Positions 1 to 14,036 of a stretch of DNA of 64,000 bases are shown here, piece by piece. A model generated the notes under the pieces. It was not told where the DNA came from and ran no database searches. It was given only the letters and a program-made list of their open reading frames with translations. The position numbers were made by a program, and so were the translations under genes. Each line of letters opens with the position of its first letter. Within the stretch, counting starts at the first letter, position 1. Source of the stretch: an uncultured virus (IMG/VR IMGVR_UViG_3300020048_000069) (Duplodnaviria > Heunggongvirae > Uroviricota > Caudoviricetes); the IMG/VR virus record IMGVR_UViG_3300020048_000069; one strand, 5' to 3'.

Positions 1-876
1 GTTTGAAACCCATTGATATTGTGCAAGACCATGATTGCATTGAAACCCACGTGGAGGGTGCAAGACCAACGTCTCTGTGAAACCCATGCAGCACGTGCAA
101 GACCATCATCCAAATGAAACCCAAGCAATGCGTGCAAGACCATCATCCAAATGAAACCCAACAAGAAAATGCAAGACCACAGATGCACTGAAACCCATTT
201 CTTTTATGCAAGACCAGTGTCATGATGAAACCCATTATAGCCATGCAAGACCATGGTACTTCTGAAACCCAGGCGCTCCGTGCAAGACTATTCCTGAGAT
301 GAAATCCATTGAGAATGTGCAAGACCGTATCTTTCTTGAAACCCAAGATGGCTGTGCAAGACCAGGCCTTTTTTGAAACCTACTACACCAATGCAAGACC
401 ATCGCAAGTTTGAAACCCATTGATATTGTGCAAGACCATGGTGATTTTGAAACCCAGGAGAAGTTTGCAAGACCAGGATTTTTCTGAAACCCACAATAGG
501 GATGCAATACCACTCTGATTCTGAAACCCATTAGAACTGTGCAAGACCACTGATAACGCGAAACCCACTTGGAGGGTGCAAGACTATTGATCCTGTGAAA
601 CCCAAAGCAGTAATGCAAGACCATTGACCGAATGAAACCCAGAAGGTTTGTGCAAGACCAGTGTTTTTTTGAAACCCACAATAGGGATGCAAGACCATCG
701 CTCCTGTGAAACCCAATACAACCATGCAATACCATTGACCGAATGAAACCCAGGTGAAGTTTGCAATACCAGGATTTTTTTGAAACCCAGTAGAACGATG
801 CAAGACTGCTGTCAAAATGAAACCCACAAGGCAAGTGCAAGTCCACTTGACGATTGAAACCCATTAGGTTTTTGCA
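1..876 (+). repeat. TIGR-like dual-repeat guide-RNA array: [TGAAACCCA-N9-TGCAAGACCA-N9]n, 37-bp period, truncated by the window's left edge
   Basis: TGAAACCCA (or a 1-mismatch variant) starts at 4, 41, 78 ... 818, 855: 24 copies exactly 37 bp apart. 23 TGCAAGACCA-type repeats lie between them, and every spacer is 9 nt. The last second-type repeat decays into TGCAAAAAAA at 873. Strand is inferred from the downstream gene and the TG...CCA repeat ends. Confidence 0.9.
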
Positions 877-908
877 AAAAAAACCACTAACCCAATTAGG
901 AGAATCTT

Positions 909-1820
909 ATGTTAATCGAAGAACTGAAAACCCAGTACGACAAAGTAAAGGTGTCGGCTATCGAAGCCGATTGCAAAAATGCACTCAGCATATCTGCGCT
1001 GAACAGGGGTGATTTCATCCTCAAGCTGTATTACCTGGAGACGACCAAGCGTTTCAAGGAAAATAAAGTGTACAAGAACGATACCTTTGAGACGTATATC
1101 ATGCGTCTCTTTAACCTGCGATACAGCACGTTCAACAGGGAGAGGTTCGCCTTTATTGCTCACCCAGTCGCAACCGCCAAGTGGGGTGCCGGATTGATTG
1201 ACAAGATCAAAAACGACTGCGGCGCCGGGAAGGTGACTGATGTTATCCAGGCCATTGATGCAATTCCGAATATTGATCGTGCTGGCATCGACAGAATTAT
1301 CTCCAGTTTTAGGAAACCAAAAGTCGAGACCAAAACGACTGTTGAGGATACCAAACATGATCTGGAGCAAACGAATATCAAGAAGCAAAAGCAGATTGCT
1401 GAATATATTCAAACTGTGAACGAATTGACGGATCAACGAGAGCGGATGAAAGATACGATCATTCGGAAGGAAGTTGAAAATGTTGAATTGTCTGCTAAAA
1501 TCAACACTCTGATTGCAGGTGTTGGTAACGTTGACGAACGAATCAGTAAACTGATGACTGAAAACGCTGAGCATATAGGATTGAATGAACTGGCAATGAG
1601 TGAAATCGAAACATTGAAAGCTGAAAATGTTAAAAATATTCAGCTTATCCATGCTTTGAAAGCTGAGAACTTCGGATATATGCAAACGATTAGAGAACAG
1701 ACTGCGACAATAGAGCGACTGAAGGCTGAAAATGGTTCGCTCAGAGGCCAGCAGTTACCGGCGTTTATGCGGCATACTACTCAGCATGGACAGTTCAGAA
1801 ATCAAAATGCTCATGTCTGA
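909..1820 (+). CDS. Hypothetical phage protein: N-terminal putative DNA-binding region (DUF3102-like) and long C-terminal coiled coil
   Basis: AGGAG RBS before the ATG; motif KVYKNDTFETYIMRLFNLRYST; heptad-rich C-terminal half. No Nop, RuvC or HNH motifs seen. Confidence 0.75.
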   Translation: MLIEELKTQYDKVKVSAIEADCKNALSISALNRGDFILKLYYLETTKRFKENKVYKNDTFETYIMRLFNLRYSTFNRERFAFIAHPVATAKWGAGLIDKIKNDCGAGKVTDVIQAIDAIPNIDRAGIDRIISSFRKPKVETKTTVEDTKHDLEQTNIKKQKQIAEYIQTVNELTDQRERMKDTIIRKEVENVELSAKINTLIAGVGNVDERISKLMTENAEHIGLNELAMSEIETLKAENVKNIQLIHALKAENFGYMQTIREQTATIERLKAENGSLRGQQLPAFMRHTTQHGQFRNQNAHV

Positions 1821-2318
1821 TCCCTGAAAACAAAAATCCCGCAATATGGGTATTTTTCTTGAATTTTTACCTATATTTTAAAGATATGTCGGTTGTGTAC
1901 TCATGTTGAAAAGGATCAGGCAAATGTCAAGTTATGCGATTTTCGTAGTCGGTGTTATTTGCGGGGTGTTTCTGACTGTGATTGTTTACGAAAACATGTT
2001 GTATCACGACGAGAAGAAGAAAAAGTGGAGGTGGTGATGATACTAAAAATTCTATATTGTTTGTTCCTGATATTGATCCATTGCAATTATTTCGTAATTT
2101 TCGGTTTCCTGGTGTTCATGTCGTTCATCAACAGTTTCAAAAGAAAGGATTACGGACATGATTTCAAAATGCACTTGTCAACATGAGTTCCAGGACGCGC
2201 GTTACGGTAAATTCAACCGCGTTTTTAACGTCTGCACAAACTCAAAAATCCGGTGTTCAGTTTGTTTGAAGCAGGACGTTTCTTCGGAAAAAACGAAAGA
2301 AAAAAAGTGAAATAGTAG

Positions 2319-2338
2319 CGAATATTCGCGAATATTCG
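2319..2338. promoter_or_regulatory. 20-bp perfect palindrome (tandem CGAATATTCG x2), candidate operator
   Basis: CGAATATTCGCGAATATTCG read directly in intergenic DNA. Confidence 0.4.
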
Positions 2339-2374
2339 TAAAGGAGAGCAAATATACTTAGTAAAATCAAATAG

Positions 2375-2415
2375 AAACGGGTGATTCAGATTTAATCTGT
2401 TTCACCCGTTTTTTT
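2375..2415. terminator. Intrinsic terminator between convergent units, possibly bidirectional
   Basis: AAACGGGTGA-TT-CAGAT-TTA-ATCTG-TT-TCACCCGTTT followed by a T run; just past the stop of the minus-strand operon. Confidence 0.75.
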
Positions 2416-2426
2416 ATAAGAGTAGT

Positions 2427-2675
2427 TCACTTCAGTTTTTTGATCCAGCTCCAGCCAATCTCTATCCCACAAGATTTGATTGCATCCATGCTCTTGATGA
2501 GTTGGCGGGATGATTTTGTAACATCTCCAATTCTCAGCAAGCCATTGTGACATCTCAATTCTGTCAGCGCGGCGGTGCGCATATCTTGTCTGGCATCGTA
2601 GGAATTGGATTCAACGGCAATCAAAAACTTACCGAATGGGGATGTTATCACAGATTTGTAAATTGCCAGCTTCAT
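2427..2675 (-). CDS. Hypothetical protein (probable start MKLAIYK)
   Basis: Last gene of a tightly packed minus-strand cluster; GGAG RBS; overlaps the upstream stop (ATGA). Confidence 0.6.
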   Translation of the reverse strand: MKLAIYKSVITSPFGKFLIAVESNSYDARQDMRTAALTELRCHNGLLRIGDVTKSSRQLIKSMDAIKSCGIEIGWSWIKKLK

Positions 2676-2992
2676 ATTTTTTCTCCAATCCAAAACGGAC
2701 AGTACTCATTTGGTTGATCCTCCACCCATTCTCCAGCGCGCTGTCTATCTATCCAATCAATCCATTCCGGAGCATCAAAATCCGGATAACATTGGCCTTG
2801 AACCGGCCATTGTTTGTAAATGGCACAACTCGGTTTCAGGCACTTCAGATGAGACGCGGTGTGTCCTTCCCAGCGTTTCAATGCTCCAATCTTCCCATTT
2901 TGGCGGCAGGAAGCTGTTTTTTTTTCGTTTTTTGCCTTACCGCCTTTGCGTCCCATAGCAGCGGCGGCAATGCTGATTTCTTCATTCTTCAT
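2672..2992 (-). CDS. Small basic protein with KGG-type motif
   Basis: AAAAMGRKGGKAKNEKKTASCRQNGKIG; ATGA overlap with the upstream gene. Confidence 0.65.
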   Translation of the reverse strand: MKNEEISIAAAAMGRKGGKAKNEKKTASCRQNGKIGALKRWEGHTASHLKCLKPSCAIYKQWPVQGQCYPDFDAPEWIDWIDRQRAGEWVEDQPNEYCPFWIGEKI

Positions 2993-3381
2993 TCGTCAGC
3001 CTCGCTATATGCAAAACTGAATTCTGGGTCTCCATGCTCCCCCCAGCCATAATGTTCCTCAATATCAGCAAGGCTGCACTTGCATCCAAAAGACAAATCC
3101 CCAGGATAAACCATTATTCCGCAAACAGGACAAAACGGATAATTTTCTCTGGATACGAATGTGCGGGTAGGATCGCCAATAGATGGGCCTGCAACACCAT
3201 TATTTATTGATCGGAAGTAATCATCCCCCAGGTTGATCCAGTTATTGTCATGGGGTATTGAGGACTTAATATCTAATGATTGCTCGCCGTCTCCCATGTT
3301 GGTAATCAGGATAATCTTTTTTGCATCGTCAAGTTGCATATTTGCTTCCTTCCCGGCGATTGCCTCGCCGGTGGTTATCAA
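2989..3381 (-). CDS. Hypothetical protein with CxxC/CxC zinc-finger-like motif
   Basis: CPVCG...CKC; packed between neighbouring genes; exact start uncertain. Confidence 0.6.
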   Translation of the reverse strand: MITTGEAIAGKEANMQLDDAKKIILITNMGDGEQSLDIKSSIPHDNNWINLGDDYFRSINNGVAGPSIGDPTRTFVSRENYPFCPVCGIMVYPGDLSFGCKCSLADIEEHYGWGEHGDPEFSFAYSEADE

Positions 3382-3383
3382 TT

Positions 3384-3578
3384 TTACGCCGTCCTGATAA
3401 CGTCGGCTTCATTAATGAGATAGGTCGCCTCGCCGATTTCTAATTCCATAAGGTCGTTCATTTCGTTAACCGAGAGATCGTCAAATTCAATATGTTTGTC
3501 AAATCTGTATCCATTCGACAAATAAACTTGGAATTCCTGCCGTTTTACTCTCTGCATTTCTCTGGCTTTTTTTAACAT
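3384..3578 (-). CDS. Hypothetical protein
   Basis: Strong RBS GCAAAGGAGAGAAC-ATG. Confidence 0.65.
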   Translation of the reverse strand: MLKKAREMQRVKRQEFQVYLSNGYRFDKHIEFDDLSVNEMNDLMELEIGEATYLINEADVIRTA

Positions 3579-3617
3579 GTTCTCTCCTTTGCCCCCTTCG
3601 GGGCGGTGATTGTATTA

Positions 3618-3794
3618 TCAAATGCTCCCTACATACGGGTTTGTATCATTATCGTTATAATCGTCATGATTCCAAACGTGAGCAATCCAGGGATACCGAT
3701 CAACAGGCCAGTCACACGAGCAGAATAATCTTGCCAACCTTTGACTCATTGGCCAGTATTGTTTCTCTTTATCTGTAAAATATACCTTTTTCAT
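3618..3794 (-). CDS. 58-aa hypothetical protein missing from the ORF track (MKKVYFTDKEKQYWPMSQRLARLFCSCDWP...)
   Basis: Translated by hand; RBS GCAAAGGAGAGAAACT-ATG matches the leader of 3384..3578. Confidence 0.6.
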   Translation of the reverse strand: MKKVYFTDKEKQYWPMSQRLARLFCSCDWPVDRYPWIAHVWNHDDYNDNDTNPYVGSI

Positions 3795-4031
3795 AGTTTC
3801 TCTCCTTTGCTTTTGGGTTCTAACTTGATTTTACACTGGTGTAATACAATTTTTAAGCCATGCCAAAACGTTTTGCTAATATTTTTTATAAACTATTGAA
3901 ACATAAGGATATATATATTTTTCATGGCAAAAACGAATGGATAACAAGTATCCAATAGCTTTACAAAACTGGATACTTGTGTAAAAAGTATGCGGATATA
4001 GTGGGTAATAAGTATCCAGTTCATTTTTTTC

Positions 4032-4059
4032 TTGACATATAGTGCAATGTGTGTATCAT
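4032..4059 (+). promoter_or_regulatory. Sigma70-type promoter for the packaging operon
   Basis: TTGACA-16 nt-TATCAT, 53 bp upstream of terS. Confidence 0.55.
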
Positions 4060-4067
4060 GTAGAAAA

Positions 4068-4109
4068 TGAGACACTTTTGAGACATGAGACACTTTGTGA
4101 GACACTTTT
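4068..4109 (+). repeat. Four TGAGACA(CTTT) direct repeats just upstream of terS
   Basis: TGAGACA at 4068, 4079, 4086 and 4098. Confidence 0.8.
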
Positions 4110-4112
4110 CCA

Positions 4113-4526
4113 ATGGCAAACTATAACGGGCTATCTCCGAAAGAAAAATTGTTTGTTACCGAATACATGATAGACCTCAATGCGTCGCAGGCATTTCATC
4201 GTGCTGGGTATAAAGGTAAACGGTTAAATGCAGGTGCGGGTAAGCTAATGTCAAAAGATAACATTCGTGAAGCAATCAAAGAAGCGCAGGAAGAAAGATC
4301 AAAAAGAACAATAATTACAATAGATAAGGTACTGACTGACATCGAGCTAATAAAAGCAGATGCTATGAAAGAGATTGATGGTAAGATGGCTGATAGAGCC
4401 GCAGCACTAAAAGGCTGTGAATTGCTCGGTAAACATCTGAAAATGTTCACCGATAAGGTCGAACACACCGGCGCTAATGGCAAACCACTATTTGAAAAAA
4501 TCACAATTGAACTGGTACATGTCTGA
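4113..4526 (+). CDS. terS: Terminase small subunit
   Basis: LSPKEKLFVTEYMIDLNASQAFHRAGY HTH start; ELLGKHLKMFTDKVEHTG end; overlaps terL. Confidence 0.92.
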   Translation: MANYNGLSPKEKLFVTEYMIDLNASQAFHRAGYKGKRLNAGAGKLMSKDNIREAIKEAQEERSKRTIITIDKVLTDIELIKADAMKEIDGKMADRAAALKGCELLGKHLKMFTDKVEHTGANGKPLFEKITIELVHV

Positions 4527-5827
4527 TGGCTGTGTTACGCGCTAAGTTTCCAGATAAAACAGGATTCCTTTTTGAGCCACATCGCTACAAATGCTTAATG
4601 GGTGGACGAGGAAGCGGAAAGAGCTATGCTATAGCGCGGTTCTTGCTGATAGAAGGATTATCTCGCAACGTTCGAGTGCTTTGCACACGAGAAGTCCAAA
4701 AGAGTATCCGGGATAGTGTTAAGCGCCTGCTTGATGATCAGATAGAAATCATGGGTCTCGGACAGCATTATCAATCTCTGGAGACAGAGATACGCGGCAA
4801 AAACGGTACGCTGTTTCTGTTTAATGGCCTATCAAATGAAACAGTTGAGAGTTTGAAAAGCTATGAAAATATTACATATTGCTGGTGCGAAGAGGCACAA
4901 AGCATAAGTAAACGTTCATGGGATGTACTAATCCCGACTATCAGAGCAGACGGTTCTGAGATTATTATGTCGTTCAATCCACAACTCGAATCCGATGAAA
5001 CATACCAGCGTTTCATAGTTAACCCCCCTCCTGATTGTGTCTCAGCGCACATGTCATATAAAGACAATCCTTGGTTTCCTGATGTGCTGGAGCAGGAGCG
5101 CAAGCACTGTGAACGAGCTAACCCAGATGATTATCCTAATATATGGCTCGGTCTTTGTAAACCCGCAGTGGCAGGCGCAATTTTTTTCAAAGAAATCCAG
5201 GCGGCACAACTTGAAAATCGTATTTGCCGAGTGCCATACGATCCACTATTAAAGGTGCATGTCGTGTTCGATCTTGGCTTCAACGATTTGATGGCGATTG
5301 GCCTCGTTCAGAAATTTCAGTCAGATATACGAATTATAAGGTATATGGAGGGTAGGGGGCAGACGCTTGCGGCCTACTCAAGCGATTTGAGAACGTTAAA
5401 TTTTAATTGGGGACGCTGCTGGTTGCCACATGACGGATATTCGAGGGATTTTAAGACCGGACACTCATCTGCTGAGATTATGCGGAGCCTGGGATGGGAC
5501 GTGCCAGATCGTTCGGAAATTGTCGAATTATCGGTTGAAGAGGGGATTCGAACAGTTCGGATGACGTTCCCGCAGATAGTTTTCGACGAAGAAAATACCG
5601 TAGATTTGGTTGAATGTCTGAAACGCTATCGGCGGCAGATAAACAGGCAGACGCAGGTAGCTGGTGCTCCGCTACATGACGATTTTTCGAATGGTGCTGA
5701 TTTTTTACGCTATACTTGCGTTAATGCGCCGCAGATGACGAATGATTCAATTGACGACTATTGGGCTGATAGCCAGAACCATCATAGATATAACAGTGAC
5801 AGCGTGAACCAATCAACGGGATACTGA
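4526..5827 (+). CDS. terL: Terminase large subunit (PBSX/Terminase_3-like)
   Basis: Walker A GGRGSGKS, Walker B CWCEEA, SFNP coupling motif, nuclease FDLG and HDD..D. Confidence 0.95.
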   Translation: MAVLRAKFPDKTGFLFEPHRYKCLMGGRGSGKSYAIARFLLIEGLSRNVRVLCTREVQKSIRDSVKRLLDDQIEIMGLGQHYQSLETEIRGKNGTLFLFNGLSNETVESLKSYENITYCWCEEAQSISKRSWDVLIPTIRADGSEIIMSFNPQLESDETYQRFIVNPPPDCVSAHMSYKDNPWFPDVLEQERKHCERANPDDYPNIWLGLCKPAVAGAIFFKEIQAAQLENRICRVPYDPLLKVHVVFDLGFNDLMAIGLVQKFQSDIRIIRYMEGRGQTLAAYSSDLRTLNFNWGRCWLPHDGYSRDFKTGHSSAEIMRSLGWDVPDRSEIVELSVEEGIRTVRMTFPQIVFDEENTVDLVECLKRYRRQINRQTQVAGAPLHDDFSNGADFLRYTCVNAPQMTNDSIDDYWADSQNHHRYNSDSVNQSTGY

Positions 5828-5828
5828 C

Positions 5829-6071
5829 ATGCAAGATTGTGATGATAGTCCAGATGATAAGATAGGCGATAAACCAGATGGTAGTCCAGATGATGATATA
5901 TATGGTATGCCTGTGTCTGCTATAGAGCAGGAGCGATATGAGAAAGAATTATTAGGCGAATTACCACCAACAAGTTTTACAACATTTTTGTGGGCGCGCA
6001 TTAAAGAAATAGCACCGGATAAGTTTGTACACAAAAATAAAATCAATATGGACTGGAGTACATTAACGTAA
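5829..6071 (+). CDS. Small acidic hypothetical protein
   Basis: Starts 1 nt after the terL stop; followed by a terminator. Confidence 0.45.
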   Translation: MQDCDDSPDDKIGDKPDGSPDDDIYGMPVSAIEQERYEKELLGELPPTSFTTFLWARIKEIAPDKFVHKNKINMDWSTLT

Positions 6072-6391: not shown

Positions 6392-8593
6392 ATGCCAATA
6401 ATCCCACAAGAAATTCCCAATGACCCACAGGCGCAGGCGCTCGGCCAATTTCCATATTCTGATGAGCAGGCAATTCAGCAAAAGCCGCAGGTTGACGTGG
6501 TATCTCAGCTCAATGCTCAATTCGCAATGACGAATATCGCAGATAATTTATCCAAAGAAAAACTGGCGACTATCGGACAGCGGGTTCTTGACGATTTCGA
6601 TGCAGATAAAAACAGCCGGGTTGACTGGGAGAAAGAACAAGAAGCTATCGCCAAAATTGCAGGCATGACGACTGAGATAAAACACTGGGCTGGTAAGGTT
6701 GTATCGAATGTCAAATACCCAATGATTATGAGCGCGGCAATCCATTTTGCATCAAGAGCATATCCAGAAATCGTGAAAGGTCGTGATGTTGTCAAATGCG
6801 CCGTGGTCGGCAAAGATACTGATGGCCAAAAGGCGGCAAAGGCAAGCCGTGTCGGACAGCACATGTCATATCAAATTCTCGAAGAAATGGATTGGGAATC
6901 TGAACTGGATCAGATGCTTATGACATATTCAATCACAGGCAGCGAGTTCAAAAAAACATATTACTGTCCGATCAAAGAGAAGAACGTCTCAGAGTTGGTG
7001 ATGTCTAAAGACCTGGTTGTTGACTATTGGAGCAAGTCCATAGAAACCGCTGCAAGGGTAACACACATCCTTGAAATGAGTCGTAATGACATCATAGAGC
7101 GGATCAACATGGGGGTGTTCCGTGGTGATCTCACGATTGACGATTTCGGGTATCCTGAACAAGATGAAGAAACAATCACGTCTATAAATGATGAGGATTC
7201 GCCTCATACGTTTTTGGAGCAACACCGAAGCCTTGATCTAGATGACGATGGATACCAGGAGCCGTACATTGTGACTGTACATAAACAGACTGCAATCGTT
7301 GTCCGGGTCTGTGCAAGGTATGATGTGGCTGGTATTAAAGTATCTGATTCAGGACAGATGACGCGCATTGAACCAGTGTCTTATTTCACGCATTTCAAAT
7401 TTATGCCTGCCATTGACGGCGGATTTTACGGCATGGGGTTTGGCAAGTTATTGTTTGGCTTGAATAACGCTGTCAATGCAATCACAAATCAGCTCATTGA
7501 CGCAGGGACGGCCAATAACCGGATGTCCGGGTTTGTGGGTAGAGGCATCCAAATAGGCCGCACATCTGCAAGTACAGACGGTTTTGCGCTCGGATCAGGT
7601 GAGTGGAAGTCCATCCCCAGCACTGGTGATGATGTCCGCAAAAATATCGTCCCAATGCCGAGCAAGGAACCATCGCATGTTTTGTTCACAATGCTGCAAT
7701 TTCTAATCGAAACAGGCAAAAGTCTATCGAACGTATCGGATATTTTATCTGGTGAATCACCGGGGCCTAACGTCCCAGCAGCGTCCACACTTGCGCTGAT
7801 CGAACAGGGGATGAAAGTATTCAGCGGCATCTTCAAACGATTGTACCGAAGTCTCAAGGACGAGTTCAGAAAAATTGCAAGGTTGAATCGCTTGTATCTG
7901 CCAGAAGAATCTTACTTTGCAATTCTTGACGATGAAATGGCGATATTTCAAGAAGATTATAGCGAAACGTCTCTGGATATTATTCCAATTGCAGACCCAA
8001 GCAATCTCTCTGATATGGGCCGGGCAATGAAAATGCAGGCATTGATGCAGCTCTCTGGTAAGGGCCTCAATGACATGGCAATTAAAAAGAGATTTCTCGA
8101 ATCGCTGAATATTGAAAACGTCGAAGAACTTCTTCCGAAAGAACCCGAAGGGCCGCCACCAATACCGCCGGAAGTCCAGGCAGCATTTGATAAGATCATG
8201 GCTGAGACTGAAAAGATAAAGATCGAAGCCGAGAAGATAAAACTCGAATCAGAAAAGATCAAAGTCGAAACTGTCACAAGTGCCGTTACATCGCAATTTA
8301 GCGCAATGCAGGCAGCTAATGTGATCGCAACATCACTAGGTACAGCTCCGATTGCTGATGCACTTCTTCTGAGTGCCGGTTTCGTTGATCGTAATGGGCC
8401 TCCGATTGTCCCGCAGGGATTAGCGCCGCAACCTGGACTTCCGCAACTCCCGCAGAACACATCGCCATTGTTTCCGGACAAGATCGCCAGTCCAGCACAG
8501 GGGATGAATATGGGGATTGAGACACCGGCTAATGACGGGTTGGTTCAACCTGGTACTGAGCAAGTTATGGTTCAGCCTGTGATGGAGGTGTAG
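6392..8593 (+). CDS. Portal protein
   Basis: 733 aa directly after terL; motifs NVKYPMI..AAIHFASRAYPE and GFYGMG.G; coiled-coil and Pro-rich C-terminus. Confidence 0.85.
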   Translation: MPIIPQEIPNDPQAQALGQFPYSDEQAIQQKPQVDVVSQLNAQFAMTNIADNLSKEKLATIGQRVLDDFDADKNSRVDWEKEQEAIAKIAGMTTEIKHWAGKVVSNVKYPMIMSAAIHFASRAYPEIVKGRDVVKCAVVGKDTDGQKAAKASRVGQHMSYQILEEMDWESELDQMLMTYSITGSEFKKTYYCPIKEKNVSELVMSKDLVVDYWSKSIETAARVTHILEMSRNDIIERINMGVFRGDLTIDDFGYPEQDEETITSINDEDSPHTFLEQHRSLDLDDDGYQEPYIVTVHKQTAIVVRVCARYDVAGIKVSDSGQMTRIEPVSYFTHFKFMPAIDGGFYGMGFGKLLFGLNNAVNAITNQLIDAGTANNRMSGFVGRGIQIGRTSASTDGFALGSGEWKSIPSTGDDVRKNIVPMPSKEPSHVLFTMLQFLIETGKSLSNVSDILSGESPGPNVPAASTLALIEQGMKVFSGIFKRLYRSLKDEFRKIARLNRLYLPEESYFAILDDEMAIFQEDYSETSLDIIPIADPSNLSDMGRAMKMQALMQLSGKGLNDMAIKKRFLESLNIENVEELLPKEPEGPPPIPPEVQAAFDKIMAETEKIKIEAEKIKLESEKIKVETVTSAVTSQFSAMQAANVIATSLGTAPIADALLLSAGFVDRNGPPIVPQGLAPQPGLPQLPQNTSPLFPDKIASPAQGMNMGIETPANDGLVQPGTEQVMVQPVMEV

Positions 8594-13121: not shown

Positions 13122-14036
13122 ATGGGCGTAATGAATAGATCAAGTTTCGCCAAGGATTTATATCCTGGCGTTAATAAGTGGTTTGGTCTCAAATACAATG
13201 AGTATCCAAACGAATTTCTGCAAATTTTTGAAAAGAACACCAGTGATAAGGCGTTCGTTGAGGAAATGAGTGTTTCTACTATGGGAATGCTTCAGCAGAA
13301 AACGGAAGGCGGCGGGATTGCTTATGATGAAATGGCTCAGGGAAACCTGTATCGCTATACGTTCGCAACCTATGCTCTCGGATTTATGATTACTCGTGAG
13401 CTTTATGAAGATGGTTTGGCGGTTACTCAGGGGATGAGACGTGCGCAGGCTTTGGCTTTCTCTGCAAGGCAGACACAGGAAACCCTGGCTGCCAATATCC
13501 TCAATCGTGCGTTTGATGCCAACTACACCTACATCGACGGGAAAGAACTTTGCGCTACTGCAAGGCCGCTTGGAAGATATGGTGGAACCTGGGCGAACAA
13601 ACTGGCGATTGACTCGGATCTGAGTGAAGCGGCTCTTGAGCAGGCGTGTATTGACATTGGCAATTTTACGAATGACAGGGGTCTTAAGATCGCTGTTCGT
13701 CCACAGAAATTAGTCATTTCAAATTCTCTCCAGTTCGAGGCTGCGCGTATTCTCAAAAGTGACAAGCAGGCTGGAACCGCTAACAATGACATCAATGCAA
13801 TGAAGTCAATGGGGCAGTTCCCTGGTGGTGTTGTTGTCAATCATTATCTGACTGATTCCGATGCCTGGTTTATTCTCACTGATTGTCCGGATGGCATGAA
13901 ATACTTCGAAAGGCGTGCAATTTCCTTCGACACAGACAATGATTTCGAGACGGAAAATGCCCGGTACAAGTGCAGCGCAAGATGGGGATTCGGAATGACA
14001 GATCCCAGATGCTTGCTTGGGTCAAGTGGCGCATAG
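13122..14036 (+). CDS. Major capsid protein (HK97 fold, Mu gpT-like family)
   Basis: 304 aa; KTEGGGIAYD, YALGFMITRELYED, GTANNDINA, HYLTDSDAWFILTD, RWGFGMTDPR; GGAGG RBS. Confidence 0.88.
   Translation: MGVMNRSSFAKDLYPGVNKWFGLKYNEYPNEFLQIFEKNTSDKAFVEEMSVSTMGMLQQKTEGGGIAYDEMAQGNLYRYTFATYALGFMITRELYEDGLAVTQGMRRAQALAFSARQTQETLAANILNRAFDANYTYIDGKELCATARPLGRYGGTWANKLAIDSDLSEAALEQACIDIGNFTNDRGLKIAVRPQKLVISNSLQFEAARILKSDKQAGTANNDINAMKSMGQFPGGVVVNHYLTDSDAWFILTDCPDGMKYFERRAISFDTDNDFETENARYKCSARWGFGMTDPRCLLGSSGA

Follow-up and report, generated by a model that had tools for sequence, protein, structure and literature searches.

How can one half of a dual guide stand, letter for letter, at two places in the same array, each time beside a different other half? 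This question is raised by the left end of a 64,000-nt stretch of DNA from an uncultured virus (IMG/VR record IMGVR_UViG_3300020048_000069), the whole of which we refer to as the window. Judged from its letters, positions 1-882 of the window are the downstream part of a dual-repeat array of tandem, interspaced guide RNAs (TIGR) in a tailed freshwater phage. The half-spacers of this array recur non-randomly, always in the same slot and mostly without the other half of the guide, and recurrences of this kind are repeated in related arrays.

According to the available text of Faure 2025 (PMC12045711), dual-repeat TIGR arrays consist of two alternating repeats of 8-12 nt, which start with UG and end with CCA, and of spacers A and B of 9 nt each, with units of ~36 nt. 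The array at 1-882 (plus strand), the register and architecture of which were matched to that text, has two alternating short repeats, paired spacers of ~9 nt and a unit of the ~36-nt type, and is closed by a truncated edge repeat. Its unit comprises the loop repeat TGAAACCCA (9 nt), 9 variable nucleotides, the edge repeat TGCAAGACCA (10 nt) and another 9 variable nucleotides. The 24 units keep a strict register from base 4, with a period of 37 nt at 23/23 intervals between successive loops. On the plus strand, loops start at 4+37k and edges at 22+37k (n = 24 each), followed by spacers that are all 9 nt long (47/47); the loop is an exact copy in 21/24 cases and the edge in 15/24. Both repeats have TG at the start and CCA at the end. 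Base 1 lies inside the array, the start of which is outside the window. At the other end, only the first five bases of the last edge (873-882, plus strand), TGCAA, are intact, and the remainder decays into a run of A, marking the 3' end of the array; decayed-edge ends of the same kind are found in the related arrays L012, L013, L016, L034, L046 and L075. A CRISPR array would have a single repeat of ~23-50 nt, spacers of comparable length and cas genes; here, the repeats are of two kinds, 9 and 10 nt long, the spacers have 9 nt, and no cas family was detected among the 35 open reading frames (ORFs) of the window with Pfam and PHROGs. None of the 47 spacers mirrors the loop or edge repeat at up to 1 mismatch. 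The two slots differ in composition within the window, the halves after the loop being purine-rich (A 68, G 64, T 54, C 30) and those after the edge T-rich (T 81, C 44, A 42, G 40), an asymmetry that is absent from the pooled related arrays.

Four half-spacers recur exactly and three pairs differ by a single base, as claimed in a previous reading of the window made from the letters without database searches (hereafter, the sequence-only reading); all seven are present in the units and places where that reading had put them. All are on the plus strand. The spacer B ttgatattg follows the loop at 13-21 and is found again at 420-428, within an identity tract of 33 nt that begins 3 nt left of the loop and stops 2 nt beyond the edge; positions 1-33 are identical to 408-440. 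The second recurrent spacer B, caataggga, is located at 494-502, with ggatttttc as its partner across the loop, and at 679-687, with the partner gtgtttttt, which is 6/9 identical to that of the first copy. The other two exact recurrences belong to spacer A, the half that follows the edge: tcatccaaa occupies 106-114 and, in the adjacent unit, 143-151, with partners across the loop that are 2/9 identical, and ttgaccgaa occupies 624-632 and, three units downstream, 735-743, inside a block of similar units described below. As to the one-base variants, cgtggaggg (50-58) and cttggaggg (568-576) differ at spacer position 2, and the remaining two pairs make up a single segment across the edge. Here, ggagaagtt, edge and ggatttttc (457-484; halves 457-465 and 476-484) have a near copy eight units downstream, ggtgaagtt, edge and ggatttttt (753-780; halves 753-761 and 772-780), with 8/9 + 8/9 identity. 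This is the sole case in the window where two halves recur together; the shared segment spans an edge, both its ends are in loops, and the outer partners of the two copies differ.

Comparison with chance expectation, a check that the sequence-only reading had proposed and for which the 47 half-spacers were shuffled both by column and within spacers, showed that these 9-mers recur too often. There are 4 exact same-slot pairs vs 0.007 expected, with 4 or more obtained in 0/5000 column and 0/5000 within-spacer shuffles, and 3 one-mismatch same-slot pairs vs 0.18 expected, with at least 3 obtained in 4/5000 and 1/5000 shuffles. When the threshold is lowered to at least 7/9 identity, same-slot pairs number 12 vs 1.96 expected (0/2000 shuffles). 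Cross-slot pairs, exact or with one mismatch, number 0 among the 47 half-spacers, and the exactly recurrent halves include two from each slot.

The recurrences are mostly confined to one half. Six of the seven have a readable partner across the loop, and the identities of these partners are 1, 2, 2, 4, 6 and 3 of 9, compared to a background mean of 2.66 of 9. The claim that the same half has different partners is therefore confirmed, 5 of the 6 readable partners being at most 4/9 identical and one 6/9, and it holds in whichever register the units are read. The identity tracts are 23-33 nt long and end in or beside the flanking repeats, and the flanking edge variants differ beside two of the copies in the window. 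The ttgaccgaa recurrence is part of a block at a lag of three units, in which three successive A spacers are 7, 9 and 7 of 9 identical. Across the loop, the spacer B partners of these three reach 4, 3 and 4 of 9, and when units 16-18 are compared with units 19-21 in the 37-nt register, their halves after the loop agree at 3, 4 and 3 of 9 positions. In the lag analysis, lag 3 is weakly raised, in one slot alone (p 0.033, uncorrected).

Short repeats can mislead an assembler, and a stitching or duplication of units during assembly, or a mixture of strains, would mimic such a pattern. We compared the array with Logan contigs (k=31) of sequencing runs X1 and X3; these runs are possibly the source of the window itself, so that the comparison amounts to a second assembler rather than an independent sample. 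The X1 contigs cover 10-123, 95-160, 133-179, 150-436 and 457-1159 with 0 differing letters, and the contigs of both runs together reproduce 10-436 and 457-1159 without a difference. The 31-mer that is common to units 3 and 4 forms a separate record at about double depth (10 vs 4.7 in X1; 8 vs 4 in X3), and the shared tracts of 23-33 nt are shorter than reads. The same contigs also show a loose end before base 20 and a second context for the half at 32-40, so that the sample contains more than one arrangement, or else further upstream units. An X1/X3 contig that joins at base 20 brings other units upstream of it: the array extends leftward of base 1, and a second partner is probable for the half at 32-40. 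A 1103-nt contig of X1 extends 255 nt or more past base 1. Given that the same pattern is present in the independent assemblies L075, L016/L017, L013, L040, L046 and L034, we consider an assembly or strain-mixture artefact very improbable.

In the related arrays, the sequence-only reading would have been contradicted by duplication of whole units alone, and this is not what we found: half-only recurrences are there too. L075, the closest array with identical repeats, contains 4 exact same-slot pairs vs 0.017 expected (0/3000 shuffles). One of its B spacers is present three times with three different partners, and another twice, each time with the same unusual loop variant; this loop variant and half recur, beside a further partner, in a contig from run X4. 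In a survey of 72 other, distinct array segments from 45 loci (1104 half-spacers), there are 7 exact same-slot pairs vs 0.11 expected and 9 one-mismatch pairs vs 2.0. Neither L075 nor the 72 segments contain a single exact recurrence that crosses slots. Loop variants were copied along with the half in L046, L016 and L075. Adjacent units with the same spacer A and unrelated B spacers occur in the window, L040 and L034. L016 holds one clean whole-guide duplicate. No exact spacer is shared between the window and L002, L016 or L075.

The pooled within-array recurrences of at least 8/9 identity (n=23) show how far a copied half takes its neighbors along: the partner across the loop is at most 4/9 identical in 14/21 cases and at least 6/9 identical in 6/21, and the neighbor across the edge is at least 6/9 identical in 3/23. 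One may ask whether whole units or blocks were duplicated and then diverged rapidly in one half, the other half being held by selection and the diverging one being diversified, for example, to follow variant targets. Partners of intermediate similarity would fit such a history, namely, 6/9 in the window, 7/9 for the B spacers of adjacent units of L013 that share spacer A, and 6/9 in L034 and L012, and so would the lag-3 block, with its three A spacers at 7-9 of 9, and the excess of same-slot pairs at 7/9 or better. However, 14 of the 21 partners are at background, which would require one half to be saturated with changes and the other half and the repeats to remain unchanged. Uniform drift after whole-unit duplication cannot repeatedly give a 9/9 half beside a partner of 1-4/9. 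Furthermore, both slots supply recurrent halves about equally (distinct recurrent halves by slot number 2 and 2 in the window and 4 and 3 in the other arrays), and no mutator, such as a reverse transcriptase, is present near the arrays examined. Therefore, duplication followed by half-specific divergence appears unlikely, if not negligible, as the explanation of these recurrences.

Which half is the partner depends on which repeat is the loop. The sequence-only reading held that this could not be settled, and for the window sequence taken by itself it was right; comparison with related arrays settles the assignment, with TGCAAGACCA as the edge and TGAAACCCA as the loop, because the repeat type, the 3' ends of the arrays and co-inheritance agree. 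In the available text of Faure 2025 (PMC12045711), the loop is A-rich, the edge has an extra G-C pair, and the array end is a truncated edge. In 55 parsed loci, one repeat is always an A-rich xGAAAyCCA, and the other is xGCGAGCxA or xGCAAG(A)CCA, with constant C3 and G6. When halves are matched (at least 8/9) among 8 related arrays that share guides, the partner beyond the loop-type repeat is also similar in 21/32 cases, and the neighbor beyond the edge-type repeat in just 4/31. Co-inheritance thus extends across the loop and not across the edge, and therefore the unit that is inherited is bounded by edges: edge, spacer A, loop, spacer B, edge. Comparison of this kind provides a rule by which loop and edge can be told apart even where RNA data are lacking.

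The connection of the array with Tas proteins comes from its relatives. Repeat-pattern searches yielded just two further arrays built on this pair of repeats, L002 and L075. L002 is a viral contig of 6.5 kb, in which an array of 11 units begins at the stop codon of a Tas-like ORF; the C-terminus of this predicted protein matches the TasR chain 9mty_A (E 3e-11) and TasH (E 8e-7). L075 is a contig of 37.6 kb, filed in a metagenome-assembled genome (MAG), with the order tas homologue, 34-unit array, homologue of ORF909, the latter being the ORF that follows the array in the window. The MAG is labelled Desulfobacteraceae, and the contig may be a prophage or a mis-binned phage. L002 carries a second Tas-like fragment (1439-1858, minus strand; match to residues 131-192 of 9mty_A, E 1e-7), which sits downstream of the ORF909 homologue on the opposite strand, overlapping its end. 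As to the other repeat-pattern matches, those in the viral contigs L001 and L003 and 8 in JGI metagenomes were rejected as single chance matches with no array; in species genomes, L075 and L074 were real and L073 was a chance match. A megablast search with 860-6000 of the window found no close DNA relative in the phage collection.

Because the arrays of L002 and L075 directly follow tas, the tas gene of the window is expected just upstream of base 1. Full-length Tas relatives are 270-300 amino acids (aa) long, and the alignment of one of them, P0003, to the 331-aa TasR chain is confined to residues 114-325; therefore, these relatives would lack the nuclease domain and resemble TasA, the subtype that has a Nop domain and a coiled coil and no RuvC or HNH domain. 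A search with the Tas profile yielded 61 viral loci; repeat motifs were supplied for 56 of these, and all but one (55) contain parsable arrays that share the design of the window array. Many tas loci contain two to four separate arrays (L012, L019, L020, L035, L040, L047, L050, L053 and others), which occupy places upstream of tas, immediately behind it and, once more, downstream of the ORF909 homologue.

These relatives also bear on whether the repeats are guides at all. The region could be imagined as a field of binding sites, iteron- or centromere-like, for the neighboring coiled-coil protein, or as a coding repeat: a conserved ORF does follow such arrays, and long, mechanically called ORFs cross the window array on the minus strand, including one of 209 aa at 235-864. 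Such ORFs run through the array because the repeats lack a reverse-strand stop codon; with a period of 37 nt, which is not a multiple of 3, the 209-aa ORF is not a gene. The design with TG and CCA, corresponding to box D and box C, also argues for guides: across the related arrays, a box D of TG in one repeat goes with TG in the other, and AG with AG, and most changes of box C affect loop and edge jointly. With Tas homologues adjoining the array in L002, L075 and the profile-found tas loci, a non-guide function is scarcely credible.

If the repeats frame guides, the recurrent halves might reflect their targets. The same 9-mer could have been acquired independently, or retained, because several targets share it, as when a repeated element or regulatory motif adjoins variable sequence, all guides with that half being functional. 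In line with this possibility, the recurrences keep their slot; over all parsed arrays (window, L002, L012-L072), spacers of both slots begin with TTGA more often than with any other 4-mer (15/544 and 15/547 distinct halves), and TTGA also opens 4 of the 13 distinct halves that recur exactly (a post hoc count); and TasA-type effectors are reported to be repressors in the available text of a preprint (Xu et al. 2026, 10.64898/2026.09.09.750476), so that shared promoter-like halves are conceivable. However, no spacer motif was found in the pooled arrays, and the spacers carry at most 0.19 bit per position, so that a shared motif cannot give exact 9/9 recurrence. The loop variants copied along with a half likewise point to copying of DNA rather than convergence. 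Nor was any target found: at up to 1 mismatch, there is none in 901-64000 of the window (four geometries, gaps 0-8), with 8 scattered hits at 2 mismatches, and when 509 guide units were searched against 575 kb of DNA, near-hits were no commoner in the real than in the control geometries. Thus, sharing of target sequences is a distinctly unlikely source of the recurrences. In the parsed arrays, C is rare at spacer position 9 (0.07-0.12; also a post hoc count).

The recurrences are best read as in-register exchange between the short repeats combined with point substitutions, which we consider the probable explanation because the slot and period are kept, the shared tracts end in repeats, repeat variants are carried along, and perfect halves stand beside unrelated partners. 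What is inferred is the route of this exchange at the molecular level, together with array expression, array processing and whatever function chimeric guides may have. Exchange between repeats of 9-10 nt could proceed by unequal crossing-over, by replication slippage or template switching, or by short-patch conversion. A breakpoint in the edge repeat would produce whole-guide duplicates. With a breakpoint in the loop, or with breakpoints on both sides of one spacer, a half would be copied beside a new partner, yielding a chimeric guide, and point substitutions would accumulate afterwards, mainly at the outer spacer positions. From the literature and the relatives, one would expect the 37-nt unit, with spacer A before the loop, spacer B after it and half an edge at either end, to be cut from a long transcript as a TIGR RNA (tigRNA) and bound by a dimeric Tas protein with a Nop domain, encoded just upstream, outside the window. 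Because the Tas proteins of the relatives (~275 aa) appear to be nuclease-free and TasA-like, the complex presumably binds DNA without cutting it, one strand matching spacer A and the other spacer B, and the probable outcome would be silencing of a competitor or host gene.

Several observations weigh against this reading or limit its reach. No tas gene was detected in the window: with a profile of 32 Tas relatives, the best E value over 633 six-frame pieces is 1.6, and the same profile gives 7e-137 on the L075 locus as a control, so that the putative Tas link of the array rests on its relatives. The process is sporadic, with no recurrence in L002 (11 units) or in most of the 72 segments. No recombination intermediate was seen, and neither were sister arrays one event apart. 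For classical recombination, 9-10 nt of homology is short. Chance would account for about 2 of the 12 one-mismatch pairs. Exact tandem duplicates of whole units (at least 73 nt) collapse in short-read assembly, and the share of half-only recurrences may therefore be inflated. Finally, exchange and drift reshape arrays and cannot be the source of the many unique halves, most halves having no relative in the array, nor can exchange explain the array of a relative in runs X4 and X5, from another study: this relative has the same repeats and an ORF909 that is 97.4% identical (16 differences in 623 nt), yet only seven pieces of its array, of 29-68 nt, match the window array, at 88% likeness. The proposal of the sequence-only reading that new guides arise by recombination and drift thus stands in part: half-spacers behave as exchangeable modules, and most guides must come from elsewhere. 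Its observation that no acquisition module is visible was upheld, there being no match to Cas1, Cas2, an integrase or a reverse transcriptase among the 35 ORFs and 3 pieces of the giant ORF searched in Pfam, or the 35 ORFs searched in PHROGs.

Point substitutions, the second component of the favored reading, can be observed directly. One-base variants exist in the window, as had been claimed, and in related arrays, and the arrays L042 and L043 differ by one spacer base. Of the 12 one-base variants within arrays, 11 differ at spacer positions 1-3 or 9 and 0 at positions 4-5 (binomial p 0.001, for a grouping of positions made post hoc). By our reading of the C-5 rule and the seed definition in the available text of Faure 2025, positions 4-5 would be the seed and the ends would be tolerant. 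Therefore, these variants look like neutral change under constraint and not like guides chasing escape mutants, as the sequence-only reading had suggested they might be.

Directly after the array and preceded by a ribosome-binding site is ORF909 (909-1820, plus strand; 303 aa). Its structure model predicts an all-helical domain (residues 1-133) followed by a single helix of ~150 residues, a long coiled coil. Homologues, 50% identical in L002 and 48% identical in L075, were detected by tblastn in 38 of the 61 tas loci, after the tas-linked array, and a further array often follows them; used as a query in the viral contigs, ORF909 found L002 only. None of 19 members of the ORF909 family matched the ParB family in Pfam, and no Pfam family was found for ORF909; Foldseek gave no match to its fold, and VIA-align gave only coiled-coil look-alikes over residues 141-302, the N-terminal domain not having been searched alone. 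ORF909 may or may not be the published TasParB, a ParB-like protein that shares an operon with tasA and the arrays. Further along, the window encodes terminase subunits (4113-5827), a portal (6392-8593) and a capsid protein (13122-14036), as well as an ORF of 7137 aa (36320-57733) with Pfam matches to LPD1, SNF2-type helicase, LPD23, methyltransferase and LPD38, a giant polyvalent protein such as certain phages and conjugative elements carry.

Set against known systems, a phage-borne TIGR-TasA array is itself of a known kind. The array of the window shares with the dual-repeat TIGR-TasA loci of Faure 2025, as far as the available text describes them, the UG...CCA repeats, the 9-nt spacers A and B, the truncated end edge and the location in a phage, and, in its relatives, a putative nuclease-free Nop-domain Tas beside the array. 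It differs from the usual TIGR arrays in that text in its 37-nt unit, which results from the 10-nt edge, and in its length, with 24 units and more upstream compared to the usual 5-15; the window itself lacks tas, and reuse of half-spacers is not described in that text. We found no published description of half-spacer reuse, with the proviso that the supplements (Faure fig. S4) and TIGRSafari could hold such data; by the same measure, a mosaic of half-guides was not found in print. As in CRISPR, repeats alternate with spacers, and units would be duplicated or lost through recombination from repeat to repeat; the available discussion of Faure 2025 (PMC12045711) cites spacer loss by recombination in CRISPR. 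Unlike in CRISPR, the repeats are of two kinds and only 9-10 nt long, so that exchange can split a guide midway and form a chimera, and for the window array no cas1 or cas2 and no leader-polarised acquisition is known. The guides of box C/D small nucleolar RNAs and IS110 bridge RNAs come as single units or loose clusters, in contrast to the regular array with exchangeable halves seen here.

How TIGR arrays acquire, maintain and enlarge their set of paired spacers is given as unknown in the available texts of Faure 2025 (PMC12045711) and of the preprint by Xu et al. (10.64898/2026.09.09.750476), which come from the same laboratory. The window, L075 and the 72-segment survey together supply a concrete observation on this question, without revealing the source of new spacer sequence: a half-spacer with its flanking repeats is one unit of copying within arrays, and the unit of inheritance between arrays is the whole, edge-bounded guide. 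The observation yields predictions that are testable in long-read or time-series data of lake phage populations. A broader proposal, which we put forward tentatively and consider rather unlikely, is that TIGR arrays diversify combinatorially, the loop and edge serving as crossover points that reassort 9-nt half-guides into new dual guides. If true, this would be a Cas1-independent route to new or broadened specificity, useful if a match to one half gives TasA some binding or repression, and it would provide a first mechanistic handle on the expansion and change of TIGR arrays, which their discoverers called an enigma.

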